DNA from: an uncultured bacterium
GTDB taxonomy: Bacteria; CSSED10-310; CAZUFC01
Length of the DNA stretch: 51,064 bases
Direction: 5' to 3'
Assembly (NCBI GenBank): GCA_964619725.1
Contig: CAZUFC010000030.1
Coordinates: forward strand, 19,804 to 70,867
The notes beneath the pieces are model-generated. The model did no database searches. It had not been told where the DNA came from and was given only the letters and a program-made list of their open reading frames with translations. Shown here piece by piece: positions 1 to 51,064 of the stretch (position 1 is its first letter; the number at the start of each line of letters is the position of its first letter). Made by a program: the position numbers and the translations under genes.

Positions 1-67
1 AACCCGGACGAAGTGCGATTAAAGTCGATATTGTCCCTCTTATTCGTGTGATTCGGGTGATTCGTGA
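1..67. repeat. Repeat family A copy 1, window-edge truncated. It shares gacgaagtgcgattaaagtcgatattgtccctcttattcgtgtgattcg with the other copies and carries ATTCGNGTG 9-mer direct repeats.
   Basis: 1-67 matches 487-553 with one mismatch. A third diverged copy lies at 50745-50816. The internal direct 9-mers are attcgtgtg / attcgggtg / attcgtg. Confidence 0.8.
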
Positions 68-127
68 TTACTGAAACAAACTGTCAAAAGCCTTTAAAGA
101 AGTGTAACCCCGGGTTGATCAGTCCCC
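66..127 (-). repeat. Family B MITE-like element, L-arm only in reverse orientation, fused to the family A repeat.
   Basis: gattactgaaacaaactgtcaaaagcctttaaagaagtgtaaccccgggttgatcagtcccc is the reverse complement of the conserved L arm (gactgatcaaacc..gttacacttctttaaaaactttcgacagtttgtttcagtaatc) seen at 8 other loci. Confidence 0.7.
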
Positions 128-196
128 AATTCAATAAGGTGATATTGAACCCTTGACCTGCAACGGCGCAGCCAAACGTAAAGTATGATCATTATG

Positions 197-330
197 CTCT
201 TCTCTTTTCGCGTGAATTCGCGTCAATTCGCGGACAAAAATTCTCTGGGAATGGTTTAATGATTTGCCGATCCAGGAATGGAGTTTTATTATCCGCGAAA
301 TTTCACGAATTCACGCGAAAAAGAGGGGTC
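197..330. repeat. Imperfect inverted repeat with about 30-bp arms and a 57-nt spacer, built from TTTCGCG / CGCGAAA and GAATTCGCG motifs.
   Basis: Arm 197-235 is ttttcgcgtgaattcgcgtcaattcgcgg and arm 292-330 is ccgcgaaatttcacgaattcacgcgaaaaa. One arm is a near reverse complement of the other. Confidence 0.6.
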
Positions 331-486
331 GTCGGAAAGGTCTGGGCGGGATATAAACGCAACTGCAGCATTTGACGGGTGAACCCAAAAAATTGTTTGT
401 CGTCCTTGACATATTTTGTGGTTTCCGGGTCCGTTCCTGCGCCCACACTCTGGATGAACTATTTCCCGGATATTCGTTCTGTCCAA

Positions 487-3989: not shown

Positions 3990-4095
3990 TTCGTCATCGG
4001 CTATTGACCATTGAAAATTGAACATTGATAATTAATCCATTAAACATTAACCATTTACTATTAGCCTTTAACCATTAACCATCGCCCATCAACCA
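3990..4095. repeat. Repeat family D copy 1, a tract of CATTGA(A/C)CATTGG / CCATTAAC-type direct repeats.
   Basis: The tract reads ctattgaccattgaaaattgaacattgataattaatccattaaacattaaccatt...aaccattaaccatcgcccatcaacc. A related tract lies at 8895-9050. Confidence 0.6.
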
Positions 4096-4313
4096 ATATA
4101 GCCGACGGTTCTGATCGAACGCGTTCAGGATTTCAGAATCATAAAATTTCACATCTCCCGACATTCGCCAATAAAAAATTGTCAGTCAATGTCAGGATGT
4201 GTGAAGTTAGAAGAAGTTCGAATTATACTTAGAAGTTTTTCTATACCTTCTGCCGGTAAATAAAGAGCATATGGACCGGTGAGCGCTGACCCGGATTCAG
4301 GCATTGATTAAAA

Positions 4314-4474
4314 AGGCTTCGTTTGAGGTTACAATTCTACAGAATATCTAATCATTTTTTTTTCGCTTGCGATACCGAACCCGATACCGACCGTGACCCC
4401 GATACGGAACCCGATTACTGAAACAAACTGTAAAAAGTTTTGAAAGAAGTGTAATTCCGGTCTGATCAGTCCCC
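4314..4474 (-). repeat. Family B MITE-like element, full copy in reverse orientation: R arm, an (NTCGGN)n core of about 8 units, then L arm.
   Basis: gtttgaggttacaattctacagaatatctaatcattttt ... gataccgaacccgataccgaccgtgaccccgatacggaacccg ... attactgaaacaaactgtaaaaagttttgaaagaagtgtaattccggtctgatcagtcccc. Confidence 0.8.
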
Positions 4475-4477
4475 GGA

Positions 4478-4625
4478 TTTCTCATAAAAAACCTCGTACA
4501 AGCGTCCATATCCCAGCATCTTCAAGCGCTGTTATGCTTCCGCAGTCCTCCGGTCTGCCGCGCTCGAATCAACGGGAATCAGTAAGCATTCACTACGATT
4601 TTGTATTAGAAATCTGTACTGAAAT
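4478..4625. repeat. Repeat family C copy 1, about 150 bp, containing atgcttccgcagtcctccggtctgccgcgctcgaatc..gggaatc.
   Basis: It aligns with 43622-43790, sharing ggatttctcata..aacc, ccatatccc.gca, the atgcttccgcagtcctccggtc core, gggaatc and a tcactac.atttt tail. Both copies lie upstream of plus-strand genes. Confidence 0.7.
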
Positions 4626-6886: not shown

Positions 6887-7057
6887 CGACGGAAGACATT
6901 TCCCATCTTCAGCGATGATACTAAAACGACAACAGGATCGCGCCGATTTTCGGAAATAAAAGGCGATTCTTAGTATCCTAATGGAATATGATTCAGAACT
7001 ATGGTGCATGCTAAAAAATGTCCGAAATCGTCTTATTGTTCGATAAAAATCAAATCG

Positions 7058-7128
7058 AGGTTGGTATCAGTATCGCAATCGAAATAAAATGAGGGGAGAT
7101 TCTGGCGAATTGTAACCTCGAAAGAGAT
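7058..7128 (+). repeat. Family B MITE-like element, partial copy consisting of a short core and the R arm.
   Basis: ggttggtatcagtatcgcaatcgaaataaaatgaggggagattctggcgaattgtaacctcgaaagag matches the R-arm consensus atcgaaacaaaatgatgggagattctgcgaattgtaacctcaaaagac. Confidence 0.7.
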
Positions 7129-7256
7129 ATTGGCGATCAATGCCGAAAAATGGAGGAGGAAGTTGAAAAGACGGTAATCTCAGAATATTCGATGTTTCCG
7201 ATCCTTATAACCCCATCGAAGCCGCGGTTCACGGCACATATACGCCCTGGAGAATA

Positions 7257-8894: not shown

Positions 8895-9050
8895 GGTTGC
8901 ATTCATTGATCATTGACCATTGGCGATTGAACATTGGCCATTAGATCGTTTATCTGCTCAATCACATTCGGCTCGTCAGAATCGTCAATCGTCAATGGCC
9001 AATTAGCGCAAGCCGAAAAGCGTCGGCCATTGAACATTGGTTAACCGCAC
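8895..9050. repeat. Repeat family D copy 2.
   Basis: The tract reads cattgatcattgaccattggcgattgaacattggccattag ... aatcgtcaatcgtcaatggccaattag ... ggccattgaacattggttaacc. Confidence 0.6.
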
Positions 9051-13236: not shown

Positions 13237-14136
13237 TCACTCCGCTCCTCCCTGACTCTCCGTCAAAGCTTCAAAACCGGATACTATATCCAGCAGTTCA
13301 GCGGTTATGGAAGACTGGCGGCGGCGATGATACAGCTTGTTCAATTCCTCCAGCCGGTCATTGATGTTCCTCTCAGCAGCCTGCATGGAAGAAAGCCTGG
13401 CCGCATTCTCCGCGGTCAGTGATTCACTTATCGTCTTGAATAATGTAACGAAAAAATATTCTCTGAGCAAAGCGCGGAAAAGCTGATGCCAATCCATCGT
13501 ATAATCGGGCAGCGTATTTGATTTCCATTCTTTACTTTCCAGCCCTTCCAGCATGCGTTGGTTCAAAGGAAGCAGAAAAGAGATAGCAGGCTCATAGGAA
13601 GCTCCTGGAACCGGTTTATTGTGAAAAAGTATAATCCTGTCCGCCTTATCGAACAAACGCATTTCCTCCATTTCTATGATCAGGCGCCTTAATTTGTCGG
13701 AAAGGTCGGCCAGGGTTCCCGATACGGTGAACTGCTTCTCTGTTTTCAACCCTTCATCTTCCAGCGAACCGGTCACGCGCTCGCCTAATGAGAAGATATG
13801 CACTTTTTCCGGTTGCGCCGACAGTTTTCCTATATTTTCAACTGCGTAGGAGGCGATTTTTTCATTGAATTTGCCGCACATGCCCTGTTCGGAGCCGAAA
13901 ACGACCGCTGCCTCTGTTTTATCGCTCTTCTGTTCATAGAATTTAAAATCCCGGGGTTTGTTTCTCATCAGTATCTGGAACCCCATTTCCACCGTATGGT
14001 AGTAATGATTGAGCGATTCGGCGGCCTTTTCATATCTTGTTATACTGACTGCAGCCAGCGATTTCATTGTTTTTACTACTGAACGGAGTTCTTTGGCGCT
14101 GTTTATTTTGTCTCTTAATTCGTCAAGCTGTTCCAT
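13237..14136 (-). CDS. atpG: N-ATPase (F-type) gamma subunit.
   Basis: The 299-aa ORF is the last gene of the atpDCQRBEFAG cluster. Its C-terminus is typical of a gamma subunit (...AELLDIVSGFEAL). Confidence 0.85.
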   Translation of the reverse strand: MEQLDELRDKINSAKELRSVVKTMKSLAAVSITRYEKAAESLNHYYHTVEMGFQILMRNKPRDFKFYEQKSDKTEAAVVFGSEQGMCGKFNEKIASYAVENIGKLSAQPEKVHIFSLGERVTGSLEDEGLKTEKQFTVSGTLADLSDKLRRLIIEMEEMRLFDKADRIILFHNKPVPGASYEPAISFLLPLNQRMLEGLESKEWKSNTLPDYTMDWHQLFRALLREYFFVTLFKTISESLTAENAARLSSMQAAERNINDRLEELNKLYHRRRQSSITAELLDIVSGFEALTESQGGAE

Positions 14137-14139
14137 AGT

Positions 14140-15711
14140 TCAATTATCTTCTGAATTCCTGCCGGTCATCTGCTCAGCAAATTTTGTCAGTGAATTAATA
14201 TCTTCATCATTCAGGGTTTCGCCTTTTTTGATTTTTCTGCAGATATCGGGACGCTCTTCACTGACGTTCTTTCTGATTTTTTCTTCAGCGTCATAGATTT
14301 CATCCAGTTCCAGCGGGTCAAATACGCCTTGATTGACGGCCGTTATGACGGCTATCTGTTCTGGAACCGTCATGGGATCGAATTCCTTCTGTTTAAGGAT
14401 TTCTCTGACTCGTCTGCCCCTGGCCAGGGTCTTCCGGGTTTCATCATCGAGCCTTGTGCCGAACCTGGCGAAGGATTCGAGTTCTTCAAACTGTGAATAG
14501 GAAAGCCTCAGATCGCCTGCCACGCCGCGATAGGCAGGAAGCTGCGTTTTTCCTCCCACGCGTGAAACCGATCTTCCGACCTCAACAGCCGGCATTCTGC
14601 CTTCCTCGAATAATTTAGGCGAAAGATAAATCTGTCCGTCCGTTATTGATATAAGATTAGTCGGAATATAGGCGGATAAGTTTTCTGCCTGAGTTTCTAT
14701 AATGGGCAAAGCAGTCAACGAACCTCCGCCGTATTCTTCTTTCAGATGAGTGGAACGTTCCAGGAGTCGTGAATGAATATAAAAAATATCGCCCGGATAA
14801 GCTTCCCTGGCCGGCGGACGGCGCAACAGCAGCGAAGCTTCGCGATAAGCCCGGGCATGCCGCGTCAGATCGTCGTAAATCACCAGGGCATCTTTTCCCT
14901 GGTCCATAAAATACTCGCCTATGGTTGTAGCGGCATAAGGAGCCGCAAAGTTCAATCCCGGCGAATCTTCGCCTGTCGCAACCACTACGGCGCTATATTC
15001 CATGGCGCCTCTTTCCTCCAAATCATCAATGACTTTGGCTACGGCTGACGCCCGCTGTCCTATCGCACAATATATGCAGATCACACCCCTCTCTTTCTGG
15101 TTGACGATGGTATCCAGAGCTATTGCCGTCTTGCCTGTCTGACGGTCTCCCAGTATCAGCTCACGCTGGCCTCTTCCCACCGGAATCAGAGCATCCACGA
15201 CTAAAAGGCCGGTCTGCAGAGGAACGCTTACCGGAGCCCGGTCCATTATCGCCGGCGCTTCCTTTTCGGACGGTTTTCTCGTTTCAGCTTTTACCGGTCC
15301 TTTTCCGTCCCGGGGACGCCCCAGCGGATCAATGACCCGGCCCATCAAACCTTCTCCTACCGGTACGTCGAGTATCCTTCCCGTGCGATATACCGGACCG
15401 CCGGCCCTTATGTTCTCGCTTTCATCGAGCAATACGACCGCTATCCTGTCACGGTCAAGATTGAACGCTATTCCCGCCTTATTTCCGGTGAATTCCACGA
15501 TCTCTTCGTAACTGACATTCGGCAATCCCTTCGCCCACACTATGCTGCCGCTTATCGACGTTATTCGGCCTATCTCTTTTTTATGTATACTATATTCATA
15601 CTCCTTCGCTGCCGATGCTACAATTCCGAACGTTTCCTTCAATAATTCGTCAAGTTCCCGTGTGCCGTTTTGATCAATCATTTTATTTACCCGCAACATC
15701 CTGCCGTTCAT
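14140..15711 (-). CDS. atpA: N-ATPase alpha subunit.
   Basis: The 523-aa ORF has the Walker A motif GDRQTGKT and the alpha signature ...DDLT/SKQA. It overlaps atpF by 4 nt. Confidence 0.95.
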
Positions 15712-16463
15712 AGTTTCTCGAATGTCTTGACCGTCTTCTGTTCAAGATCATCCAGGTAATCCTTTAAATTCCATTCATACTTTTTCTCGCCGATTATCAT
15801 CTCAATCCCGCCTACTAAATCCTCCGAAGTCTCAAACTCCAAAAAAACATCAGATGAAAACCTCTCCCGCATATTCTGTCTTACCTCTTCCTTAGCATCC
15901 TCCGACAGCTCGGAACCGCTGATTATCTTTATCTCACGATCGCTGCCCTTTATTTCCCCAATATCTGCTGCAGACTCTTCTTCAGAACTCTCCAGACGGC
16001 CGAACAACTTGCGCACAATCAGACTCTCCAATCTCGAATCGGAAAGCTCCTTCAACGCACGCCCCGAAATGTCGAATACGCCTTCAGCCGCACGAATTCG
16101 CAGCTCATGTAAAAATTCGCTTTTCTGTTTCCGTATGCCTTCCCACATTTTCTCCCTGTTTGCCTCCGCATCCTGCCGCGCTTCTTCCAGCAATCGCTTC
16201 CGCTTTTCTTCCGCTTCCTTTTCCGCTTTTTTCGTCAATTCCTCGCTTTTCGACTCCAATTCCTCTTTCTTTTCCAGGTATTCTTTTTCCGCTTGCTCGG
16301 CTTTTCGCCGCTTTTCTTCAGCCTCTTCAATTTCAGACCTGATCTTTTTCGCCCGGCGGTCCATCACCTCAATGATCCGCTTATACAGAAAATGACGCAA
16401 CAGAAGGATCAGGATTATGAAATTTATGATCTGAGCTATTATGGTGAATAAATCCAGATTCAT
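15708..16463 (-). CDS. atpF: N-ATPase b subunit. It is long and highly charged, and there is no separate delta gene.
   Basis: The 251-aa ORF has an N-terminal TM helix followed by an extended E/K/R-rich helix. No atpH is present in the operon. Confidence 0.8.
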
Positions 16464-16476
16464 TTTAACGCTTCCT

Positions 16477-16746
16477 TCATTGCTGAGTTACATAATTCCA
16501 GAAGGGATTGGCGAAAATGAGTATGATGGCGATTACAAAACAATAGATGGCGGTTGATTCGATCATTGCCAGTCCCACAAACAACGTTCTGGTTATGGTG
16601 TTGGACGCATCGGGCTGCTGCGCTACTGAACGGAGCGCCTGAGCCAGAGCGATCGCCTCGCCTATAGCCGGGCCTATGCTCCCTATCGCTATAGTCAATC
16701 CCGAAATAATAACAGATGCCATGCCGATCACAGTCGCATTATCCAT
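16477..16746 (-). CDS. atpE: N-ATPase c subunit (proteolipid) carrying a complete Na+-binding ligand set.
   Basis: Helix 2 reads LAMIESTAIYCFVIAIILIFANPF, with the E-S-T..Y pattern seen in Ilyobacter tartaricus c. Helix 1 carries an extra Glu (SIGPAIGEAIALAQ) where I. tartaricus has Gln32. I chose the Met start at 16746, which overlaps atpB by 8 nt. Confidence 0.9.
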   Translation of the reverse strand: MDNATVIGMASVIISGLTIAIGSIGPAIGEAIALAQALRSVAQQPDASNTITRTLFVGLAMIESTAIYCFVIAIILIFANPFWNYVTQQ

Positions 16747-17461
16747 TGGATTCTTCTCCTTTCTGTTCATTTTTGGATTCTTTATTCTCTTCTTCTCTGC
16801 GGACTCTGGTGGCGGAAGCGATGTAGACTGCCGCCAGAACGGCGAATATGTAAGCCTGTATCTGTCCTATGATCAGGTCCAGAGCCTGCAGAAGTATTGG
16901 AAAAATTAAAGGCGCTATGCTCACTAATACCGCTACGATAAGGGTCCCGCTCATTACATTCCCGAATAAACGGACTGCCAGCGCCAGAGTCCGGGACAAT
17001 TCTCCGATTATGTTGAATGGAAGCATCAGCATGGTCGGCCTGATGTAAAGCTTTAAATAATTCTTTATTCCCTGCTGCCCTATTCCATAAATCGGTACCG
17101 CAAAAAATACGCATAAAGCCAATGCCGCCGTCGTGTTGATTGAACCCGTCGGCGGTTGATATCCAGGTACGAAACTCAGTAAATTCGATATCGATATATA
17201 CAAAAATAAAGTCCCTAAAAAGGGTAAAAAGGGCATCGGGTTCTGTTCCACAATGTCCTCTATCTGGTCCCGTATAAAACTGACCAGCGATTCCAGAAAA
17301 TGCTGCTTCCGCGATATCTCCGGCTCCACCGATAAATTCCGGGTCGCCAACCAGGCCGAAATCACCAGCGCCGCCATGACCGCCCACGTATATACTATCG
17401 TAGCGCTTAAAGTTATGAATTTCCATTGAAAATATACTATTTCATCAGGAGTTATATTCAT
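16739..17461 (-). CDS. atpB: N-ATPase a subunit.
   Basis: The 240-aa polytopic membrane protein has the conserved a-subunit Arg region (LALAVRLFGNVMSG). Confidence 0.9.
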   Translation of the reverse strand: MNITPDEIVYFQWKFITLSATIVYTWAVMAALVISAWLATRNLSVEPEISRKQHFLESLVSFIRDQIEDIVEQNPMPFLPFLGTLFLYISISNLLSFVPGYQPPTGSINTTAALALCVFFAVPIYGIGQQGIKNYLKLYIRPTMLMLPFNIIGELSRTLALAVRLFGNVMSGTLIVAVLVSIAPLIFPILLQALDLIIGQIQAYIFAVLAAVYIASATRVRREEENKESKNEQKGEESNG

Positions 17462-17462
17462 A

Positions 17463-17774
17463 TCATACTTCCTTCTCCGTCAATTTTCGCATGACAGGCG
17501 GCGGCGAACTCTTTCTGAAGGTCATGACGATCTTTATCACGATAAATCCTCCCAAACAGATCAATAATGGCCGCAATCCCCCCAGGACCGCTGAGAGATA
17601 AAAAACGGCCAGGGCCGTCGCCGTCCTCAGGAAATAACCTGAAATCAAGACTAAATAGGGCTTCTTCAATTCTTTGAAACGACTTATGATCATCCAGAGC
17701 GTTCCGAAATAGAATAAACCTGTTAATAAGCCTGCAATAAAATACATAGAATATTGCAAGTAGATGCTATTCAT
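17463..17774 (-). CDS. atpR: N-ATPase-associated small membrane protein (AtpR-like).
   Basis: The 103-aa ORF has 3 predicted TM helices. Its position immediately upstream of atpB is as expected in N-ATPase operons. It overlaps the antiporter gene by 8 nt. Confidence 0.6.
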   Translation of the reverse strand: MNSIYLQYSMYFIAGLLTGLFYFGTLWMIISRFKELKKPYLVLISGYFLRTATALAVFYLSAVLGGLRPLLICLGGFIVIKIVMTFRKSSPPPVMRKLTEKEV

Positions 17775-19002
17775 TTTGTGCCTCCAGGAAATCAGACCAT
17801 TTATTTAAAAAAAAGCGAACGATAAAAGGCGAAAGCAGGCATGTCAGGGCTGAGACTATGACCATGCCGCCGAAAAGCCTGGGGGGCACGGCCCAATCGC
17901 CCAGTTTTTTTCCATGCTGCATAATGATCATGGCTATTTCAGCCCTGGGGACCATGCTGAATCCGATCAGAACGGCGGCTTTTCGATCTGTAACGAGATA
18001 AGCGAAAATACTTCCTCCTGCTATTTTTCCTATAAAAGCAGCGACGGTAAGGAGCAAACCGACAGCGGCGGCCGCGCCGAGTCCCTCCGGTACGAGGTGT
18101 AATCCTATACCGATAAAGAAAAAAGGTGAAAAAAGCTCATATAAGGGCCTGAATGAACCGGTGATTTTAACTGATTCCGGATCACGGCTGAATGCCAAAC
18201 CGGCAAAAAAGGCCCCTATCGCCACCGAAAAACCCAATAAACCCGCTATGGCGGCGATGATGATGCCTGTTCCCGCTATCAGCAGCATGGGGTCGGGCGG
18301 AGCCTCGATTCTTCTGAAGTATCGGGTGAGCTTTCCTTCCATTTTAATTGAAAATAAATAACAGAGGGCGCCGAATATAAGAAGCTTTAATATAATCAGT
18401 CCTATGGATTTGGACAACAGCACAACCAGTCCGATACCGCTTTCCTGATTCAATACCGGAACTGCAGCGAAAAGAAGGACCATAAAAATGATGCCTAAAA
18501 TATCATCCAGTTCGGCTGTATCGAGTAATAACTCACCGGTGGGCGTTTTCAGTTTTCCCGCTTCTTTCCATATTTGAACCGTTATGCCGACGCTGGTTGC
18601 AACCAGGGCCGCAGCGACGAAAAGAGATGGAATGGTAGAAAAACCGCAAATATGCCGGGCTGTTACATATCCGACGACTGCGGGTATCAGCGTGTTGCCC
18701 GTGCATATGAATCCGGCTCGTTTTATCTGGCTCAGCAGCTCTGAAATATTGCCTTCCAGCCCAATGTGAAACAGAAGAACGATAACGCCCATTTTAGCTA
18801 AAAACTCAAATATTTCTTCTCCTGCAGCAGAAAGAAACCCCAGTTGGTGATCGGCCAGTCGAAGGAGAAAACCGATGAGGATATAACCGACCAGGGAAGG
18901 GACGCTGATGCGCTCAAGTAAAGATTTGAAAAGGATAGCCAATACGATCAGCGTTCCGACCAGCGTTATCATTATGATGACTTCACCGCCGGCATCAATC
19001 AT
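17767..19002 (-). CDS. Cation:proton antiporter of the Na+/H+ exchanger family (CPA1/CPA2 superfamily), embedded in the N-ATPase operon.
   Basis: The 411-aa ORF has about 11-12 predicted TM helices and a typical Na_H_exchanger fold pattern. Its start overlaps the atpQ stop by 8 nt and its stop overlaps the atpR start by 8 nt. Confidence 0.8.
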   Translation of the reverse strand: MIDAGGEVIIMITLVGTLIVLAILFKSLLERISVPSLVGYILIGFLLRLADHQLGFLSAAGEEIFEFLAKMGVIVLLFHIGLEGNISELLSQIKRAGFICTGNTLIPAVVGYVTARHICGFSTIPSLFVAAALVATSVGITVQIWKEAGKLKTPTGELLLDTAELDDILGIIFMVLLFAAVPVLNQESGIGLVVLLSKSIGLIILKLLIFGALCYLFSIKMEGKLTRYFRRIEAPPDPMLLIAGTGIIIAAIAGLLGFSVAIGAFFAGLAFSRDPESVKITGSFRPLYELFSPFFFIGIGLHLVPEGLGAAAAVGLLLTVAAFIGKIAGGSIFAYLVTDRKAAVLIGFSMVPRAEIAMIIMQHGKKLGDWAVPPRLFGGMVIVSALTCLLSPFIVRFFLNKWSDFLEAQNE

Positions 19003-19303
19003 GTCGACTCTCCCTTTTAACCCAGCGCCAGGCGTTTAAACAGCCCAAAGCCACTCCTATCGACAGGAAAGTCAAAGTCCAGGATACGGAACCGTCCGTT
19101 TCGGCATCGAGCCACAAACCTACGGCGAGTCCGATCAGCGTCGGTATCACGACAGACCAGCCGATTATGCCGAACATGCCCAGGCCGTACCAGAGGCTTT
19201 TTTCCTTTTCACGTCGCGCCTTTAATTTACGGCTTTCTTCCTTTCCTATTTCTTCTGAGAATTCTTCAGCGTTTCTTTGTTCGTCATTTTTTTCTTCGTT
19301 CAT
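18995..19303 (-). CDS. atpQ: N-ATPase-associated small membrane protein (AtpQ / AtpZ/AtpI-like).
   Basis: The 102-aa ORF has a charged N-terminus and two TM helices. It sits after atpC as in N-ATPase operons. Confidence 0.6.
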   Translation of the reverse strand: MNEEKNDEQRNAEEFSEEIGKEESRKLKARREKEKSLWYGLGMFGIIGWSVVIPTLIGLAVGLWLDAETDGSVSWTLTFLSIGVALGCLNAWRWVKRESRHD

Positions 19304-19306
19304 TTT

Positions 19307-21198
<1,892 letters not shown>

Positions 21199-21316
21199 TT
21201 ACAATAAGCCACGGCAAAAATATTGACTAACAGATATTACAGTCAAATTAGAAATATTTCGAATTTTATTTTGAAATTTTTCGAAATATCGCACGATCTC
21301 TGGACTGAACAGAACA

Positions 21317-21506
21317 AACCGGGCTTATACCTCCTTCAGAACTCATGACAGTTTGTTTCAGTAATCGGGGTCGGGATCGGGATAGCTATCGGGATCGGGG
21401 TCGCTATCGGTATCGCTATCGCTATCGGGATCGAGATAGCTATCGGTATCGGTATCGGGGTCGCTATCGAGATCGGTTTCAAAGCAAAATGATGGGAGAG
21501 TTTTTA
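21317..21506 (+). repeat. Family B MITE-like element with the longest core: L arm, about 20 (NTCGGN) hexamers, then R arm.
   Basis: The L arm ends ..cagaactcatgacagtttgtttcagtaatc. The core reads ggggtcgggatcgggatagctatcgggatcggggtcgctatcggtatcgctatcgctatcgggatcgagatagctatcggtatcggtatcggggtcgctatcgagatcgg. The R arm starts tttcaaagcaaaatgatgggagag. Confidence 0.85.
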
Positions 21507-21735
21507 TACCAGAAGAAAGCATTGACTTGAAGGCTAATCAGCGCTGCTTAATTCGCATTGACTGTAAACCAAAACAAAAGAGCGATACGAAAAAGAAAAT
21601 TCTCAATAAAATTGCCTCGCGGGCAAAAGATTTGGGGATTTCAGATTTAGCGGCTCAACATGACCACTATTTATACGGAACGGAAAAATGATGACTATTC
21701 CGATATTTCTGGATATTGGCTATATCCTCGCTTTG

Positions 21736-26306: not shown

Positions 26307-26932
26307 GAAAGAGAGGAGAAAAATCCGCCTGTTGGAGGACAAAAACCAAGAATCTCACAAATCAAAAGAATAAGAGGGGCGATATTGCCGTAAACCCAAC
26401 ATCATTCAGCCATTAAAAACCCGACGAACACATTCAATATCGTCCGGCGGCAACTAAAGCAAAGGGCAGAACCAAACGTTCTCGGCATAGTCAAAACCAT
26501 TGAATCCGCCGCCAGACGTCAGGGCATTAAAAACCATCAAGGGAACGCGGCAGGATGCCGCTTTCAAAGGCGCCCGCAGAATCCGATCAGGTGTATATGG
26601 ACCGACAAAACTAATTGAATGATTACAACCCGAACTTTTAAGATAGTTCCCGAACATCGAAGAGAAAAAAGCGGATCAGGATGCAAAACTGGCTCATAAG
26701 ATTACAGCGGATAGCCCAGACAACAAGGATTGATGGAAAAAAAGATTGCGATATTAAACGCGTCAAGGCCTGCGGTAAAAGCTAATGTCGACGATGACGT
26801 TGACCGGACGAAAACCGCGAATCTCGTGAATCTCAGGAATAAGAGGGGAGATATTGCCGCGCATCCACATCGTTCATCTTTCCGGCATCAATAACATCCT
26901 CGAAAGCGTTCACCGATGAAGATTTTCACATT

Positions 26933-27075
26933 TGTCAAAAACACTTCTCTTAAGGTTGCAATTCGACAAAATATCCCATCATTTTGTTTTGATTTCGATC
27001 CCTATACCGGCCCCCGATTACTGAAACAAACCGTCATAAGTTTTTAAAGATGTGTAACCCGGTTTGACCAGTCCC
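26933..27075 (-). repeat. Family B MITE-like element, full copy in reverse orientation with a minimal core of about 3 units.
   Basis: The reverse complement reads aattagggactggtcaaaccgggttacacatctttaaaaacttatgacggtttgtttcagtaatcgggggccggtatagggatcgaaatcaaaacaaaatgatgggatattttgtcgaattgcaaccttaagagaagtg. Confidence 0.8.
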
Positions 27076-27326
27076 TAATTTTTACAGTCTTGATCGCTTT
27101 ACGGAGGCGGCAAATCTGATAAAGCCAAAAATCATGGGGCGGCAGGCGATTAGAAAAACGACCTCACATACGCTAATACAGAAGCGTGATAAAAGCGTTG
27201 TACACCATCAAGCGTATATTCCGTCGAATTTTGCGAGTAAAAGGCTTTTTTGTCCATCGCCCTTTGTAAATAATTTACTTTTCCATGGCGTCGTTGAATT
27301 CTTCAATGAAAAACTTGCATGCAGGA

Positions 27327-34890: not shown

Positions 34891-35000
34891 CTGTTCTTCA
34901 CGATCAATCCGTTGATTAAACCGGCATAGCTGATGTGACTAAATTTAAAATCTTATTCACCTGACGCACAAGGCGGCAGGGGCCGTGTTTGTTATTGTGG

Positions 35001-35202
35001 GCCTGATCAAACACGGATTACACTTCTTTCAAAATTTTCGACAGTTTGTTTCAGCAATAGGTATCGGGATCGGATTCGGTTTCGGCGGCCGTATCGGTAT
35101 CGGGTCGGATTCGGTTTCGGCGTCGGGATCGGCATCGCAATCCGAATAGCAATCGAAACAAAATGATGGAATATTCTGCCGAATTTTAACCTCAAAAGAC
35201 AC
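35001..35202 (+). repeat. Family B MITE-like element, full copy with a core of about 16 units.
   Basis: The L arm is gcctgatcaaacacggattacacttctttcaaaattttcgacagtttgtttcagcaatag. The core is gtatcgggatcggattcggtttcggcggccgtatcggtatcgggtcggattcggtttcggcgtcgggatcggcatcgcaatccgaatagcaatcg. The R arm is aaacaaaatgatggaatattctgccgaattttaacctcaaaagac. Confidence 0.85.
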
Positions 35203-35206
35203 TTTT

Positions 35207-35224
35207 CAGGCACAATTATTGCTT
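35207..35224 (+). promoter_or_regulatory. Sigma-54 -24/-12 promoter, aGGCACa-N4-TTGCT.
   Basis: GG 35209-10 and GC 35221-22 have the exact N10 spacing. It is a near-consensus match to TGGCACG-N4-TTGCW. The predicted TSS at about 35233 lies upstream of the Hsp20 gene. Confidence 0.55.
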
Positions 35225-35358
35225 CCTAATTCGGTGAGAGTTATTGATTTTTTGATCATAAAAATTCTGCGGGCATAATGAACTTCTGCGATACACAAAG
35301 TAAAAAAATTATCAACATATTGGAAAACAGAAGGCGTTATGTTTATGGAGAAACAAAA

Positions 35359-35838
35359 ATGGAAATAAGCGCCAATGAATTCAGAAGAAATACAAACAAT
35401 GGAAGAGCGAACCGTTTTCCGAAATTTGAAAAACCGGAAAACGGAGCTTCAAAACCTGAGCCCCGAAACAGTTGGCTGCCGCTGACCGACATTATGGAAG
35501 CGGACACCAAGGTTATTGTTTTAGTCGAACTGCCGGGAATGGAATCGGATCAGGTCGAACTGGAAATCGAAAATAATTTTTTAACGATTCGTGGGGAGAA
35601 ACCCAACGATCTGTTTGAAACGGATCATTATCTTCATAATTGTGAGAGGTACAGCGGAATATTTCAAAGGATTTTTTTGCTTCCCCACAATCTGGTTGTA
35701 AAAAATGCTCACGCCTGGTTTAAAAACGGTTTACTGACCGTCGAGATTCCAAAGTGGGGCGGAGATACGCCGTATTTCAGCAACGTAAGAAGAGCCGGGC
35801 AAATGGAACATCCGAAACACACAATTCGAATCGAATGA
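35359..35838 (+). CDS. Hsp20 / alpha-crystallin family small heat-shock protein, second copy.
   Basis: The alpha-crystallin domain is WLPLTDIMEADTKVIVLVELPGMESDQVELEIENNFLTIRGEK...GLLTVEIPK. I chose the ATG with a ggag SD, giving 159 aa. The ORF-track start at 35278 has no SD. Confidence 0.8.
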   Translation: MEISANEFRRNTNNGRANRFPKFEKPENGASKPEPRNSWLPLTDIMEADTKVIVLVELPGMESDQVELEIENNFLTIRGEKPNDLFETDHYLHNCERYSGIFQRIFLLPHNLVVKNAHAWFKNGLLTVEIPKWGGDTPYFSNVRRAGQMEHPKHTIRIE

Positions 35839-37063: not shown

Positions 37064-37180
37064 TGCGACTGAGCAAATGGGTATACATTTTGTCCCGGCA
37101 ATAAATCGGCCTATTGAAATAGCGTTGCCAAAGCCGGCTGTTATGCACATTTGACACGCGACCCCGGATTTCGGGAAGAA

Positions 37181-37290
37181 TCAGACCGGGTTTATACTAC
37201 TTTCAAGACTTTTGACGGTTTGTTTCAGTAATCGGGGCCGGTATCGGAATCGGGGGTGAAATCGGTAACGAAATCGAAACAAAATTCATT
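37181..37290 (+). repeat. Family B MITE-like element with a short core of about 6 units and a degenerate R arm.
   Basis: tcagaccgggtttatactactttcaagacttttgacggtttgtttcagtaatcggggccggtatcggaatcgggggtgaaatcggtaacgaaatcgaaacaaaattcatt. Confidence 0.8.
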
Positions 37291-37383: not shown

Positions 37384-37604
37384 TAACGTGAATAAAAACT
37401 CATTAAAATTTTAACCCCTCACGGAAGGTAAAGAAAAAAACTTCACCAAACCTATCAGGGGGATTTGAAAGGGTGCGCTGAACTGAAAGATTCATTCTGC
37501 TAAAGCAGGCTGGAAGCCTGCGCTCCCAGTAACCCCTCGTAATTGGGAATTCAGTTAGCGTGAATAAAAACTCATAAAAATTGAAACCCCTCACGGAAGG
37601 TAAA
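37384..37604. repeat. Two direct copies of a roughly 50-bp unit, 171 bp apart, in an 800-bp non-coding region.
   Basis: 37384-37433 is gtaacgtgaataaaaactcattaaaattttaacccctcacggaaggtaaag. 37555-37604 is gttagcgtgaataaaaactcataaaaattgaaacccctcacggaaggtaaaa. Confidence 0.7.
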
Positions 37605-38113
37605 AAATACAGCTCAATACAGCGTTCTGCCTAATAGCCGTCCATAAGCCTGAATCGTAAGTTTGATGCTTATGGACCTTTTTTCCGCTAATAAGTTTTT
37701 GTCCATAAACGGTGAATTTCCCCAAATGCTGCGTCAGGCTGCGGATTTGCTCAGTCAATGTATAAACAATACCCCTGCCTCGCAAATCCTTGCCTTCCTT
37801 GTCTTAAGAAAAATTCGCCCGTTTATGGATCAAAAACCCAAGTGGCTGTCCAGCATTAAATTTTGAATCGAGATTCGAGTTTGTGGACAGACACTAATAA
37901 GGTTATTATCCGGATATTTCAAAAGAAACAATGCCGTTTCAATCAGGTATGCTGAAAATATGCACACCATTTATCGTGAACCCTCACAGTTCTATTTTGG
38001 CTGAAAAGTTGCATAACGAAAATCAGGATGAATCGGGGAAATTTCTTCTGTTACAGCAGTCTTGAACAACAGCCGGAAATATCCCGCAAAGTTTAATCAA
38101 AAGGAGCAACAGT

Positions 38114-41427: not shown

Positions 41428-42312
41428 TTATTTGCCGAAATAAGACGACAGATTGGAACCGTGTATTGCAGCATGGCAATCAGTGCAATTCGATTGCCTG
41501 GTAAATCTCTGATGCCAGACCGGGACTTCAGCATGGCAACTATAGCACAAGTCCGCAACGCTCTGAAACAGCAGCAAATGCCGGTTTACGGAACCGTGAG
41601 GATCATGACAGCCGGTACACCCTTCTATTAAAACGCCTCCATGTTCATACAGGTAAGGCCCTCGTTTGAAAGCATGACACTTGTAGCATATCTGCGGATC
41701 GTAACCGCTCAGGTTCCTCCTCCTTGACGGTCCGTGCACCTCATGACATGATGTGCATACCATGAAACCTTCCTTCAACGGATGATGCTCATTCAAATTA
41801 AATCGCGCATATATCGAAGGATGACACTCTCGACACGATTCAACTGTGCTTTCCTTGAGCAGATAACCGGCGACCTCGTTTTCGGAATGGATGCTGTGAC
41901 ATCTCATGCAATCCGTACCGGTGAATCCATGAACGGAACTGAAAAACCTCGATGTTTTTTTCTTATGACATTGAACGCATGCAGCGGTTTTTGAAATAGG
42001 CGTTTCCTTCTCGCTGAACGTCGTCATTCCTGCTGTATTCGTATAATCCTCCACATGCGCTTTATATCCCTTATGACATGCCGCACAACTGAATTCGACA
42101 GATTCTCCGCCGTGGGCCTTTTTACGATCCAGAGAAACATGAGGGTTATCTTTGATCGAAGATACGACTTCATCATGACAACCCGCGCATAATCGGACAT
42201 CGGAGCTTTCCTGCGCTGCCGACGGAAAGTAAACGATATGCAACACGATCACGGTGAATATAAATGCCTGCACGACTGTGACATAATGTGTGCGGCGCAT
42301 GAGGAAATTCAT
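41428..42312 (-). CDS. Periplasmic decaheme c-type cytochrome, MtrA/MtoA/PioA/DmsE-like.
   Basis: The 294-aa ORF has a signal peptide and exactly ten CxxCH motifs: CAGCH, CAACH, CVQCH, CMRCH, CRECH, CTSCH, CYKCH, CTGCH, CYSCH and CTDCH. Confidence 0.85.
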   Translation of the reverse strand: MNFLMRRTHYVTVVQAFIFTVIVLHIVYFPSAAQESSDVRLCAGCHDEVVSSIKDNPHVSLDRKKAHGGESVEFSCAACHKGYKAHVEDYTNTAGMTTFSEKETPISKTAACVQCHKKKTSRFFSSVHGFTGTDCMRCHSIHSENEVAGYLLKESTVESCRECHPSIYARFNLNEHHPLKEGFMVCTSCHEVHGPSRRRNLSGYDPQICYKCHAFKRGPYLYEHGGVLIEGCTGCHDPHGSVNRHLLLFQSVADLCYSCHAEVPVWHQRFTRQSNCTDCHAAIHGSNLSSYFGK

Positions 42313-42354
42313 TTCAGCCCTCCCTTGATTTGATGTTGAATCTGCTTATTCTTT

Positions 42355-43155
42355 TCAAGAGTGAGAAAAAACGATGACCGCGTCAGGATCGATCACCTGA
42401 AAAGTAAAAGATTCCGTGAAATACAACCATACTTCCTTGCTGGAATGCTGTTCGTATCCCATTGAGAAATCATGTCCGAGAGTCAGACGAAAACTGCCTT
42501 CCCGTTGAGATGCCAGAAACATATCGTCGATATGAGGAGAAAATATTACCTCGCCTCCTATCAAGTCCTTTATCTGACGGTGCAGCGGATATCCTTTCAC
42601 AGTAGCCATCATCCTGCTCCACATATCGGGAGACATTACAAGCGAACAGGGTCCCGGTATGCCGGCTTTCCTGAATTTGATCATCCCCTCGGAAAGTTTT
42701 TCCATTAATGACTCAGCTCCGTCCGGATAAGGAATCACCTCATGCCCCGTTCCCTTCGCCAATCCCTCTATGCCGCCTGTATGAAAACCTTTATATACAG
42801 CCTTTTCCTCGAATGCGGCTATCTTGCGCGCAGCCTCCTCCATAGGTTCAATATCCGCATCCTCAGCCCCTCTGCTTATGTTGTCCAATTCCCATACATT
42901 CAGCTTAAAAGAAATACGGGTTTCCATCAGCGGTTTTACCTGGTGAAGACCGTACAGGACCTCCCGCTTGGGCTCCGATTCCAAAACCTGCAGACGGCCT
43001 GTCGATACTACTCCGAAATCCCATCCGTGAGGTCCATCTATCTCCACGAACTTTCTCGCCGTCAACGAGGTCCTGAATATTTCTCCCGCTCGTCCCCGTA
43101 ATTCCTCCCAGGCCCTATCGGATATGGGCGCTAACGATTGTCTCAATATGTCCAT
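42355..43155 (-). CDS. Family 1 encapsulin (linocin M18-like) nanocompartment shell protein.
   Basis: The 266-aa ORF is colinear with Thermotoga maritima encapsulin. MDILRQSLAPISDRAWEELRGRAGEIFRTSLTARKFVEIDGPHGWDF aligns with [47 protein letters not shown], and the match continues through the C-terminus (..TESFTFQVIDPDAVIV). Confidence 0.9.
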   Translation of the reverse strand: MDILRQSLAPISDRAWEELRGRAGEIFRTSLTARKFVEIDGPHGWDFGVVSTGRLQVLESEPKREVLYGLHQVKPLMETRISFKLNVWELDNISRGAEDADIEPMEEAARKIAAFEEKAVYKGFHTGGIEGLAKGTGHEVIPYPDGAESLMEKLSEGMIKFRKAGIPGPCSLVMSPDMWSRMMATVKGYPLHRQIKDLIGGEVIFSPHIDDMFLASQREGSFRLTLGHDFSMGYEQHSSKEVWLYFTESFTFQVIDPDAVIVFSHS

Positions 43156-43175
43156 TGGTTTCCTCCTTCTGTTTT

Positions 43176-43535
43176 CTAAGGTTTGCCTATCTTAAGGTCA
43201 GGGTTGTCGCTATCCTCTGATTCCGGTTCTTCATTTTCTTCCTGCATCTCCTCCAGCTCCGTTATGTCTCCTTCCTTAAACAGGTAAGTCCGCATCTCCT
43301 CATCCCAGCCCGGCATATTCCTTCTCAACCATTCCAGAATCATGCACGCATGCTCGATCTCCTCATCCCTGTTATGAGACAGAATTTTCTTCATCGCCTC
43401 ATCCGAAGCCGCATCAACCCTCTGGTTGTACCAATCCACAGCCTCGATTTCTTCTTTCAGACTGTGCAATGCACGTGTACAATCTCTGGTTAAATCCCTT
43501 AATTCATCAGTCGGTTCATGATATTCCGCCATTTT
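43176..43535 (-). CDS. Encapsulated ferritin-like cargo protein (EncFtn) with a C-terminal targeting peptide.
   Basis: The protein is about 119 aa. ExxH ferroxidase-type motifs are present (EEIEAVDWY; DEEIEHACM). An acidic linker is followed by a C-terminal ...DLKIGKP, which resembles the T. maritima cargo peptide GGDLGIRK. I start it at an ATG with an aaggag SD. The ORF track starts at 43613. It lies 20 nt upstream of the encapsulin gene. Confidence 0.75.
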   Translation of the reverse strand, partial: KMAEYHEPTDELRDLTRDCTRALHSLKEEIEAVDWYNQRVDAASDEAMKKILSHNRDEEIEHACMILEWLRRNMPGWDEEMRTYLFKEGDITELEEMQEENEEPESEDSDNPDLKIGKP

Positions 43536-43584
43536 TGCTGCTCCTTCCCGTTGAAAATACCAATAACTGAGTCTCTGAAAAAAG

Positions 43585-43604
43585 AAGCAAACGCCGTGCC
43601 TAAT
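43585..43604 (-). promoter_or_regulatory. Sigma-54 -24/-12 promoter, aGGCACG-gcgt-TTGCT, in front of the EncFtn-encapsulin-cytochrome-porin operon.
   Basis: The minus-strand sequence aggcacggcgtttgct matches TGGCACG-N4-TTGCW at every position except the first T. It lies about 50 nt upstream of the cargo-gene ATG. Confidence 0.6.
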
Positions 43605-43621
43605 TCTCAACACTGAATCAA

Positions 43622-43790
43622 CCAGGATTTCTCATATAACCTGTTACGAACGGCCATATCCCCGCACCTTTAAGCCCTGCTCACTTCGGACCTGATCAAC
43701 ATAACGCCCCCATGCTTCCGCAGTCCTCCGGTCCGCCACGCTAGAATCTGCGGGAATCTGAACGCTCTCACTACAATTTTATATGAAAAA
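43622..43790. repeat. Repeat family C copy 2.
   Basis: It contains atgcttccgcagtcctccggtccgccacgctagaatctgcgggaatc and the shared flanking blocks. It aligns with 4478-4625. Confidence 0.7.
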
Positions 43791-44099
43791 TCCGGGCTAA
43801 CGCACTGCTGCTGATAAAAACTTTGTATTTCATCCCGAAATCCTTTTGAATAAAAATTGAATTAGAAATTTTACAATTTTTTTTAGCAATTATTCTAATT
43901 TCCGACCGGCAACATAATCGTTCAGCCTGAACAAAAACTGAGGAACATTCGCAGGTCCACGGCTTAAATCCTTTTATGCAGCGCTTTCCAGGATGAGTTT
44001 GACTTCTTCAAGTGAGTCCCCTAGATTTAGAAAGGACTTAATGATGAGTTCCAGGGGAATGAATTCCATGCGCAAGAACCGGTTCTTAAGTCAGTATCT

Positions 44100-47960: not shown

Positions 47961-48061
47961 ATTTTCACGAACCACAGCGCTCCTTTAAATGACTCCTCTG
48001 CACCGGCGCCCGCGTCCGATTGATAACTCTACCGCAAAAATAAATCTGCATAAGGGAATCC

Positions 48062-48312
48062 GGGGACTGTTCAAACACAGATTACATTTTTCTTAAAAAA
48101 ATCAGCGCAAAGGAATCCCCTGTTTTTTCATCGAGGCCCGTTTGTTTCGGGGTCGGGGTCGGGATCGAAATCCGGCGCTGATCAAAAATGGCCATGTCAG
48201 GGTTACAATTTGTCAGTTTGAATCCTTCGTGCTCGTGCTCGTGCTCAGTGCAGCGGTAATCGTAATCGAAACAAAATGATGTGATATTCTTTAGAATTGC
48301 AAAATCAAAAGA
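48062..48312 (+). repeat. Family B MITE-like element, a composite/nested copy with internal insertions and a CGTGCT-type core variant.
   Basis: The L arm is ggggactgttcaaacacagattacatttttcttaaaaaaatc. An insert follows, then ggggtcggggtcgggatcg, then a second internal L-like piece cagggttacaatttgtcagtttg, then cgtgctcgtgctcgtgct ... ggtaatcgtaatcg and the R arm aaacaaaatgatgtgatattctttagaattgcaaaatcaaaag. Confidence 0.7.
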
Positions 48313-48369
48313 AGCATTTTTGATCATTGTCGACTTTTGATCATCGCCGGTGCAATTTACGATAATATC

Positions 48370-50419: not shown

Positions 50420-50531
50420 ACGGCATTCATCAATATCACAGCACATGTACGCAAACTCGAACCCCGATTTAAATTTTTAGCGCTGGACAGGAGCTGCGGT
50501 TTTTGATCCGAAAATTAAGCTTTATTTTGAT

Positions 50532-50686
50532 GACTGATCAAACCTGTGTTACACTTCCTTAAAAACTTTCGACAGTTTGTTTCAGTGATCGGGGTCGGTA
50601 TCGGTATCGGGGTCGGGATCGCAATCGGGTGCAAAATCTAAATAAAATGATGGGAGGTTGCGGAGAATTGTAACCTCAAAAGACGC
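50532..50686 (+). repeat. Family B MITE-like element, full copy.
   Basis: gactgatcaaacctgtgttacacttccttaaaaactttcgacagtttgtttcagtgatc is followed by ggggtcggtatcggtatcggggtcgggatcgcaatcggg and then tgcaaaatctaaataaaatgatgggaggttgcggagaattgtaacctcaaaagac. Confidence 0.85.
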
Positions 50687-50744
50687 ATCTTTGCTCAATG
50701 CCGCATGGAAAAATGGCTTCGCAGATGTCATTGCTGCCGAACCG

Positions 50745-50816
50745 CTTGACGAAGTTTATTTTACGTCGATATCGACTCTCTTATTCATGTGATTCGTGTG
50801 ATTCGTGGTTTGCTTT
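50745..50816. repeat. Repeat family A copy 3 (GTGATTC heptamer/iteron-like).
   Basis: ttgacgaagtttattttacgtcgatatcgactctcttattcatgtgattcgtgtgattcgtggtttgcttta aligns with 491-560. Confidence 0.75.
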
Positions 50817-51064
50817 ATCAACGTTTTAATCGCCGTTTGCGTTTGTCCGAGCTTGATTCGGGTCCCTTCGGAAAAATGCGGCCTATAATTTCAACAACGT
50901 CTGCTGAGCCGCATTCGCGTAATCGGATTTTGACAGCGCATTTGAAAGCGGCAGGATGCCGCTTCTACTTTCTCTTCGTCTTTTGAGGATGTTTTTTGTT
51001 AGAGCTGTAGAATCTCCTTTGAAATATATGCATCGAGGAATGGCTTCGCGGATGACCTTACTGC

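Follow-up and report, generated by a model that had tools for sequence, protein, structure and literature searches.

A modular intergenic repeat with inverted arms and a variable hexanucleotide core in an uncultured bacterium of the CSSED10-310 lineage

We analysed a 51,064-nt stretch of DNA from an uncultured bacterium of the CSSED10-310 lineage (contig CAZUFC010000030.1 of assembly GCA_964619725.1). The whole stretch is called the window below, and all coordinates are window positions. It holds nine loci, designated c1 to c9, of an intergenic element in which a left arm and a right arm flank an array of degenerate hexanucleotides; c4 is the focal copy. We propose, with a probability only a little above one half (about 0.55), that this element is a non-coding, non-autonomous small interspersed repeat of mosaic type, comparable to BOX elements, bacterial interspersed mosaic elements (BIMEs), Neisseria intergenic mosaic elements (NIMEs) and MITEs (miniature inverted-repeat transposable elements), which spread in the past and is now decaying.

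An earlier examination of the letters of the window, made without database searches (the sequence-only reading), had listed the same nine loci, and all of them are real. The core of the left arm, GACAGTTTGTTTCAGTAATC, is matched seven times at up to three mismatches where 0.00 matches are expected in the 51-kb window, and the core of the right arm, ATCGAAACAAAATGATGGGA, is matched six times against 0.01 expected, both far above chance. Arm profiles searched with nhmmer recover eight left and eight right arms in the window and none beyond these, which together make up the nine loci. Elements measure 150 to 280 bp and occur about once per 5.7 kb, and hundreds of copies would be expected in the whole genome. 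The layout of arm, array and arm described earlier also holds, but the copies are not all alike: five are complete (c2, c4, c5, c6 and c9), c8 is a composite, and c1, c3 and c7 are truncated or fused. The composite runs from a left arm with an internal replacement through five hexamer units to a second left-arm variant (TGATCAAAAATGGCCATGTCAGGGTTACAATTTGTCAG, at about 48174-48215), followed by TCGTGC/GTAATC units and a right arm.

The focal copy, at 21305-21535 on the plus strand, consists of a left arm ending in GACAGTTTGTTTCAGTAATC, 19 hexamers and a right arm starting with (T)TCAAAGCAAAATGATGGGAG. Across the family, the conserved left end begins at about (A)ATTnnGGGGACTGATCA, and the right arm has the consensus ATCGAAAyAAAATGATGGGAtATTCTgnaGAATTGTAACCTCAAAAGAaGCnTTTTTGATCAATGCC. 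The right arm recognized in the sequence-only reading is genuine, but it reaches about 25 nt further out than was described, to ...AAAGAAGCnTTTTTGATCAATGCC. Read from the outside inwards, both arms follow a common plan of (A)ATTnnGGsAyTGATCAAA, a spacer, GGTTACAmTTC, a second spacer and CAkTTTGTTTC. Alignment of the left consensus with the reverse complement of the right consensus scored 30, against 16.5 +/- 3.1 for shuffled sequences, of which 1 in 1000 reached 30, and a same-orientation control scored 14. The match is imperfect and includes a 10-nt indel. Given this score (p about 0.001), the arms are diverged inverted copies of one sequence, in agreement with their earlier description as imperfect reverse complements. 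Compared in pairs, arms are now 64-87% identical, with a mean of 79% for left arms and 72% for right arms. The inner 25 nt show mismatch rates of 0.07-0.12, and the rate rises to 0.15-0.19 in the outer arm and to about 0.5 in the flanks. The GC content is 39% in left arms, 34% in right arms and 60% in the core, with a window value of about 46%.

The core unit has the consensus G-G-[G/T]-A-T-C, represented in c4 by the types GGGATC, GGTATC, GGGGTC and GCTATC. Cores are 25 to 114 nt long, five of the seven are an exact multiple of six, and exactly eight units are present in c2, c9 and a copy from a European Nucleotide Archive (ENA) contig described below. The array of GATC/TATC-type hexamers in variable number is therefore as first described, except that its span is 4 to 19 units and not about 3 to about 20. 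In the c4 core, Tandem Repeats Finder (TRF) reported a period of 6 together with higher-order periods of 18, 30 and 36 nt at 76-84% match, and comparable arrays lie at 35060-35137 (period 35, 88% match), 50587-50629 (period 18), 48147-48167 and 48227-48251. Because periods of 18, 30, 35 and 36 nt exist inside the arrays, these have undergone block duplications. When the cores of c9 and the ENA copy are compared, 40 of 48 positions match in register, against at most 37 of 48 when one core is shifted by whole units. Where the sequence-only reading had proposed ongoing slippage, this match and the three eight-unit cores raise the prospect that part of the array was inherited rather than generated locally, a reading that rests on a small margin in one pair. 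The embedded GATC ladder that had been suggested as a methylation-sensitive or binding array fares poorly: GATC is present in 12 of about 69 units (TATC in 20), and its observed/expected ratio across the window is 1.04. We rejected a Dam or GATC ladder on these grounds.

Coding sequence makes up 82% of the window, and all nine copies lie within the remaining 18%; by our own arithmetic, the chance that nine independent sites would all fall in non-coding DNA is about 2e-7. The gaps that hold them are divergent (c2, c7), convergent (c5, c8) or co-directional (c3, c4, c6), and the orientation of the element relative to the flanking genes is not fixed. The claim that the copies are intergenic and occur in both orientations was correct.

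The family is not confined to the window. As a search handle for protein databases we used the reverse-strand open frame of the element, ALIKNASFEVTILQNIPSFCFD(Asp-X)n. A profile of the window's conceptual peptides retrieved six predicted "proteins" from a collection of 5.8 billion sequences, and an exhaustive HMMER scan of 1.84 billion representatives retrieved six more. These twelve orphan proteins of 36-103 aa (P0001-P0006, P0012, P0013, P0015-P0017 and P0022) carry the motif ALIKNASFEVTI..PSFCFD(Asp-X)n, and P0022 contains elements in tandem arrangement. Eleven of the twelve are encoded on NCBI contigs of 13,439-54,364 nt, which are at least nine different contigs, none of them the 70,867-nt contig to which the HSP20 and encapsulin of the window map, and which probably belong to the same fragmented metagenome-assembled genome. 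The twelfth lies on the ENA metagenome contig ERZ10759773 NODE_665986 (576 nt; locus L082), which carries a complete element with eight units whose nearest relative is c9 (83% identity). This element is followed by an extra outer arm, 95% identical to the internal arm of c8 (48174-48210), and then by a 284-nt stretch 87% identical to window positions 188-469. Copies are thereby dispersed over at least ten contigs besides the window.

Other searches returned no further copies. Neither the GTDB species representatives nor the metagenome contigs of JGI nor IMG/VR contained a match to the strict core pattern, the back-translated profile found nothing in JGI metagenomes, and blastn found nothing in plasmids or phages. 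No arm was present in any of 80 loci around the best homologues of the pyruvate dehydrogenase (PDH) E1 gene; these homologues, from Zixibacteria, Ignavibacteria, Latescibacteria and others, do not exceed 69% identity. The HSP20 beside c6 has no close homologue except itself, a Logan fragment identical to window sequence contained no element, and literature searches on bacterial MITEs with hexanucleotide arrays and on SRR7048225, which represents the same strain at 100% identity over 1.6 kb, gave nothing relevant. The host lineage is barely sampled. These negative searches, together with the Rfam result given below, bear out the view of a lineage-restricted modular family.

The element forms part, as one module, of a larger mosaic in which other array-bearing repeats also occur, a feature missing from the sequence-only reading (Table 1). 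The head of one of these, family B, reads ...CATGGATGAAC..TTTCGCGGATGT.ATTGCTGCCGAA...GACGAAGT....GTCGATATyGnCCCTCTT and is followed by (ATTCGnGTG)n and a GGTTTT.GTCC tail that is inverted relative to GGACGAA in the head. The conserved head is GACGAAGT...GTCGATATTGTCCCTCTT, with CATGGATGAAC..TTTCGCGGATGT.ATTGCTGCCGAA as a longer left part. Beyond the right arm of both c5 and c9 stands a family-B module, with order and orientation alike at the two loci. At c1 the 9-mer array of family B passes directly, at a GATT microhomology, into a solo left arm by its inner end. The same intergenic regions house at least three families with arrays. The element family accounts for about 16% of the window's intergenic DNA by our own arithmetic, and all within-window repeats account for 23%. 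Truncation, fusion and nesting of the kind typical of parasitic repeats are seen in c1, c3, c7, c8, the tandem P0022, the extra arm of L082 and the clustering with family B.

Table 1. Positions of the element copies and of family-B repeats in the window.
Feature	Position	Strand	Evidence
c4 left arm; outer part diverged, inner core GACAGTTTGTTTCAGTAATC intact	21305..21366	+	nhmmer E=1e-16; exact core match
c4 hexamer core; 19 GGKATC-type units, internal 18/30/36-nt higher-order repeats	21367..21480	+	TRF rows 21364-21476; unit parsing
c4 right arm; 9-nt deletion, outer part diverged	21479..21535	+	nhmmer E=1e-7; alignments
c1, solo left arm; inner end joined straight to 9-mer array of family-B repeat (1-65)	66..132	-	core match, nhmmer, repeat alignment
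c2, complete; 8 hexamer units, between divergent LonC-like and BON genes	4298..4480	-	core match, nhmmer, unit parsing, Pfam
c3, right arm and decayed array; left arm absent	7036..7145	+	core match, nhmmer, unit parsing
c5, complete; 25-nt core (~4 units), family-B module after right end	26927..27080	-	both cores, nhmmer, unit parsing
c6, complete; 95-nt core (~16 units, 35-nt higher-order period), between PDH E1 stop and HSP20 gene	34993..35214	+	TRF, both cores, nhmmer
c7, left arm, 7 units, first 10 nt of right arm; remaining right arm lost	37166..37290	+	core match, nhmmer, unit parsing
c8, composite of two elements run together	48055..48332	+	nhmmer, repeat alignment
c9, complete; 8 units, family-B module after right end	50526..50703	+	both cores, nhmmer, unit parsing
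Family B copies	1-65, 487-553, 50742-50808	+	repeat alignment
Family B copies	26337-26403, 26806-26859	-	repeat alignment
Family B, probable start of further copy	51030-51064		

Further repeats lie in the same DNA. Region C (188-469) is non-coding, about 284 nt long and is the stretch shared with L082, where it matches the reverse complement of positions 261-543. It contains an internal inverted repeat of TTCGCGTSAA 10-mers (205-245 / 281-321). In the window and in L082 alike it has a copy of the present element on one side and the start of a family-B copy on the other, and the copy of the element differs in orientation and completeness between the two. Either region C marks an orthologous locus whose repeats have turned over, or it represents a third repeat family. 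Heptamer arrays (ATTGAMC / ATTAACC / CATTGRC) occur at 3994-4082, 8903-8943 and 9026-9040, intergenic beside the LonC-like gene and after the second BON gene, and resemble in form the short tandemly repeated repetitive (STRR) sequences of cyanobacteria. A 59-nt direct pair (37384-37442 / 37556-37614, 86% identical) contains the right-arm-like motif GGTTAAAATT, and a 46-nt inverted pair (37822-37867 / 50469-50514) with GGATCAAAAAC has one of its arms just left of c9. An 81-nt direct repeat, 83% identical between 4534-4614 and 43712-43792 (ATGCTTCCGCAGTCCTCCGGTCyGCC...TCACTACrATTTT.TAT), has one copy 75 nt upstream of a BON gene and the other in the divergent gap beside the encapsulin operon. 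It has no Rfam match and may be a shared regulatory region or a small RNA.

A peptide-coding role for the element is unlikely. The frame ALIKNASFEVTI...(Asp-X)n runs open through the element on the reverse strand, and the element could in principle be a small peptide gene with an N-terminal (M)ALIKNASFEVTILQNIPSFCFD, a variable acidic (Asp-Pro/Thr/Ser)n tail and a DY-stop end. This frame starts with an ATG, GTG or TTG and stays open up to a stop, which c4 and c9 have in GATTACTGA and c3, c5, c6 and c8 have elsewhere; the hexamer units preserve the frame, and gene callers chose it in twelve other copies, while the overlapping ITETNC frame was chosen in none. The openness of the core is uninformative, however, because (GAYNCC)n cannot produce stop codons in this frame. 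Substitutions by codon position number 18/16/25 (p=0.32), without a third-position excess, and the repeat codon NCC varies at its first two bases but not at its third, opposite to what coding drift would give. Nor is the frame intact: c2 has an in-frame stop inside the conserved part, c4 lacks half of that part, c1 and c7 lack it entirely, and the cores of c5, c6 and P0006 are frameshifted. The left arm, which follows the stop and is the inverted copy of the "coding" right arm, is better conserved than it (79% and 72%). No Pfam family is recorded for any of the open reading frames (ORFs), the window's own ORFs over the element are absent from the protein collection, and a search with the second frame (ITETNC) gave only low-complexity false matches. 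The codon-position, broken-frame and conservation tests lead us to read the twelve database entries as gene-calling artefacts, and we regard a peptide gene as highly improbable.

Our inference is that transposition in trans spread the repeat, which would have no function in itself. Of the earlier proposal of a "mobile or regulatory" family, the repeat family stands, and mobility is put forward conditionally because neither a consistent target-site duplication nor a transposase in the window was found. These absences are among several points that weigh against our reading. In six copies, scanned at offsets of 0-19 nt and lengths of 2-9 nt, no target-site duplication was consistent; the best uniform frame gives a 2-nt match in three of the six, which is at chance level in a small sample with uncertain exact ends, and the apparent duplications at c2 (AATCCGGG) and c6 (TTATTG) were rejected since their positions do not match. 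Pfam annotation of the window includes no transposase, integrase or REP-associated tyrosine transposase (RAYT; REP, repetitive extragenic palindrome), so that the search for a cognate transposase has come up empty within the window. Close relatives, in which orthologous loci and empty sites could be compared, are absent from every collection searched. The element is also not highly base-paired. Whole elements c9 and c2 fold no better than dinucleotide shuffles on both strands (z = -0.81, +0.86, +1.31 and +1.14), and the eight left arms give z from -1.77 to +1.24, so the hairpins looked for in the arms on the earlier suggestion are not stable. The inner stem CAgTTTGTTTC/GAAACAAAaTG nevertheless shows pairing in 93% of cells, where sliding the partner gives 31-55%, and its five one-sided changes are all G-U compatible on the forward strand, which leaves some room for a role at the RNA level. 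Finally, the uneven conservation of the arms could mean constraint on the boundary beside the core.

These last observations are the substance of a regulatory alternative, in which the element, of mobile origin or not, would be a cis- or trans-acting RNA or DNA element with forward-strand transcription. Its G-rich hexamers would form a loop, closed by a conserved stem (CAGUUUGUUUC / GAAACAAAAUG), that serves as a protein-binding platform, RNA stabiliser or attenuator, and the neighbouring genes, among them several stress genes, would be tuned by variation in core length. The inner boundary is indeed the best conserved part, each arm has an inward-facing -10-like hexamer (TACACT or TACAAT), and c2, c3 and c6 lie upstream of BON and HSP20 genes. 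However, the stem was read off the same sequences on which it was tested, which biases the slid-partner control in its favour; it shows no compensatory double change, and five other cells break it. The right-arm TACAAT was picked up by the promoter scan in c2 and c3 at only 9 of 12 positions, and matches to sigma-70 promoters and intrinsic terminators are at shuffle level. Folding is likewise no better than that of shuffles, the orientation to neighbours is inconsistent, c5 and c8 sit between convergent gene ends, and Rfam gave no match at gathering thresholds and, at E<=1, two unrelated weak matches elsewhere in the window and none on the elements. A regulatory role keeps some room through the conserved boundary and the G-U-tolerant stem, which stand without thermodynamic or positional support, and we consider it improbable. 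Equally doubtful to us is that the mosaic modules spread and are rearranged through recombination, homologous or microhomology-mediated, or through gene conversion rather than transposition, with the arms, hexamers, family B and 9-mers exchanged between intergenic sites as in BIMEs and NIMEs. The missing target-site duplication would fit this, as would the varied combinations of modules (the element followed by family B at c5 and c9, the family-B array fused to c1 at GATT), the extra arms in c8 and L082, the solo arms in c3 and c7 and the shared regions of the array-bearing families. Such exchange leaves unexplained how copies reached many unrelated intergenic sites on at least ten contigs, and the arms are laid out symmetrically and inverted, as the binding ends of a transposase would be. 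Least favoured by us, short of the peptide gene, is the idea that the hexamer, 9-mer and 7-mer modules, each a conserved head plus a short tandem array, are tunable intergenic devices of this lineage: forward-strand RNAs, promoter-proximal spacers or, less likely, (Asp-X)n micro-peptides. If so, the closing stem of an RNA would present a G-rich repeat loop to a binding protein, or the number of units in a spacer would determine how strongly nearby stress and energy genes are expressed. None of the tests that we ran points to an unusual mechanism.

Under the decaying-repeat reading, we hypothesize an ancestral unit of about 185 bp with a left arm of about 62 nt (TGATCAAAcc-GGTTACACTTC-...-GACAGTTTGTTTCAGTAATC), a core of degenerate GGKATC hexamers, about eight in number, and, as a right arm some 70 nt long, a diverged inverted copy of the left. 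This unit would have been copied in the past into many intergenic sites of the genome, most likely by a transposase or recombinase encoded elsewhere that recognises the sequence shared by the arms. Copies would later have decayed, their cores growing or shrinking between 4 and 19 units by block duplication or deletion, while arms were lost and copies became fused with modules of other repeats. Effects on adjacent genes, if there are any, are probably incidental.

Several known structures were considered and rejected. A stable hairpin or cruciform was rejected on the whole-element and left-arm z-scores given above, and a known RNA family on the Rfam search. By eye, a Bacteroidetes-type -33/-7 promoter spacing does not fit, G-runs are too inconsistent between copies for a G-quadruplex, the spacing and density are wrong for split parS-like half-sites, and the core motifs of attC sites do not fit.

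The Pfam annotation describes an ordinary chromosomal region, and a tRNA search of the window found none. The annotated genes include DUF72, a LonC-like protease, two BON-domain proteins, two HSP20s, a PRC-barrel protein, an LVIVD protein, LigA, PolX, PAS histidine kinases, response regulators, hemerythrin, PfkB, PDH E2/E3/E1, a porin-like protein with a multihaem cytochrome, encapsulin, a MASE3 kinase and a GSDH-like protein. An ATPase operon (13237-21180, minus strand) has the N-type order beta, epsilon, two small membrane proteins, a, c, b, alpha, gamma, with a Na+/H+ exchanger gene (411 aa, 17767-19002) inserted. At 41428-43613 on the minus strand, encapsulin (Linocin_M18) stands beside a 145-aa upstream ORF, a multihaem cytochrome with paired CXXCH motifs and a 649-aa beta-barrel-like protein, which suggests an encapsulin cargo system beside a porin-cytochrome module. 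The longest ORF of the second HSP20 gene (35278-35838) encodes 186 aa and the database version has 159 aa, so its start is likely at 35359, about 145 nt from the right end of c6.

The family is new, although its class is already known. For annotation, at least 12 orphan "proteins" listed in public databases are explained by it as repeat-translation artefacts and could be flagged as such. Its copy density would suit use as a strain-typing marker, in the manner of variable-number tandem repeats, and as a binning marker, and the element is a probable cause of assembly breaks in this organism. The coexistence of several array-bearing repeat families in one poorly known lineage is a curiosity.

MITEs are marked by short, non-coding, multicopy sequence with terminal inverted repeats, target-site duplication, base-paired structure, AT-richness, a partner insertion sequence (IS) with matching ends and presence/absence polymorphism (PMC3049150). 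Our element shares the short length, non-coding character, dispersed copies, inverted ends and AT-rich arms, and, like Correia/NEMIS, RUP and Nezha, it is intergenic with truncated and nested copies. It differs in having no detected target-site duplication, no highly base-paired structure and no partner IS among the genes of the window, and in containing an internal microsatellite. BIMEs of enterobacteria and NIMEs of Neisseria offer another parallel, as they also consist of short motif types variously ordered and oriented in intergenic DNA and lack target-site duplications; here the motif types are the arms, the hexamers, family B with its 9-mers, the heptamer arrays and region C. BIMEs, however, are built from REPs, short imperfect palindromes that form hairpins and stand as inverted pairs, and have RAYT partners. 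No clear palindromes of this kind and, in the window, no RAYT are seen here, although each left arm can pair ACTGAtCAAAC with GTTTGttTCAGT, at an energy no better than that of a shuffle. BIME and NIME motifs are not known to be related in sequence to the element. The 6-, 7- and 9-nt tandem arrays scattered through the intergenic DNA of one genome recall the heptamer STRRs of cyanobacteria. STRRs are plain arrays without conserved flanking arms, and the host here is not a cyanobacterium, its best PDH E1 relatives being Zixibacteria and Ignavibacteria (69%).

In architecture, the element is closest to the BOX elements of Streptococcus pneumoniae and S. suis (boxA-(boxB)n-boxC). The pneumococcal BOX, RUP and SPRITE repeats cluster with each other, and BOX has been described as a dormant non-autonomous parasite that is predicted to fold and sometimes yields spurious or novel ORFs (PMC3049150). 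The element shares with BOX two differing, inverted-similar end modules around a variable tandem module, an intergenic location, high copy number, clustering with other repeat families and spurious ORFs. The likeness is one of architecture only: the core is a degenerate 6-nt microsatellite of 4 to 19 units where BOX has a 45-nt boxB module, the element has no stable predicted stem-loop, and the host lineages are unrelated. The family adds a microsatellite-cored example, from a deep and barely sampled bacterial lineage, to the spectrum of BOX, BIME and MITE repeats.

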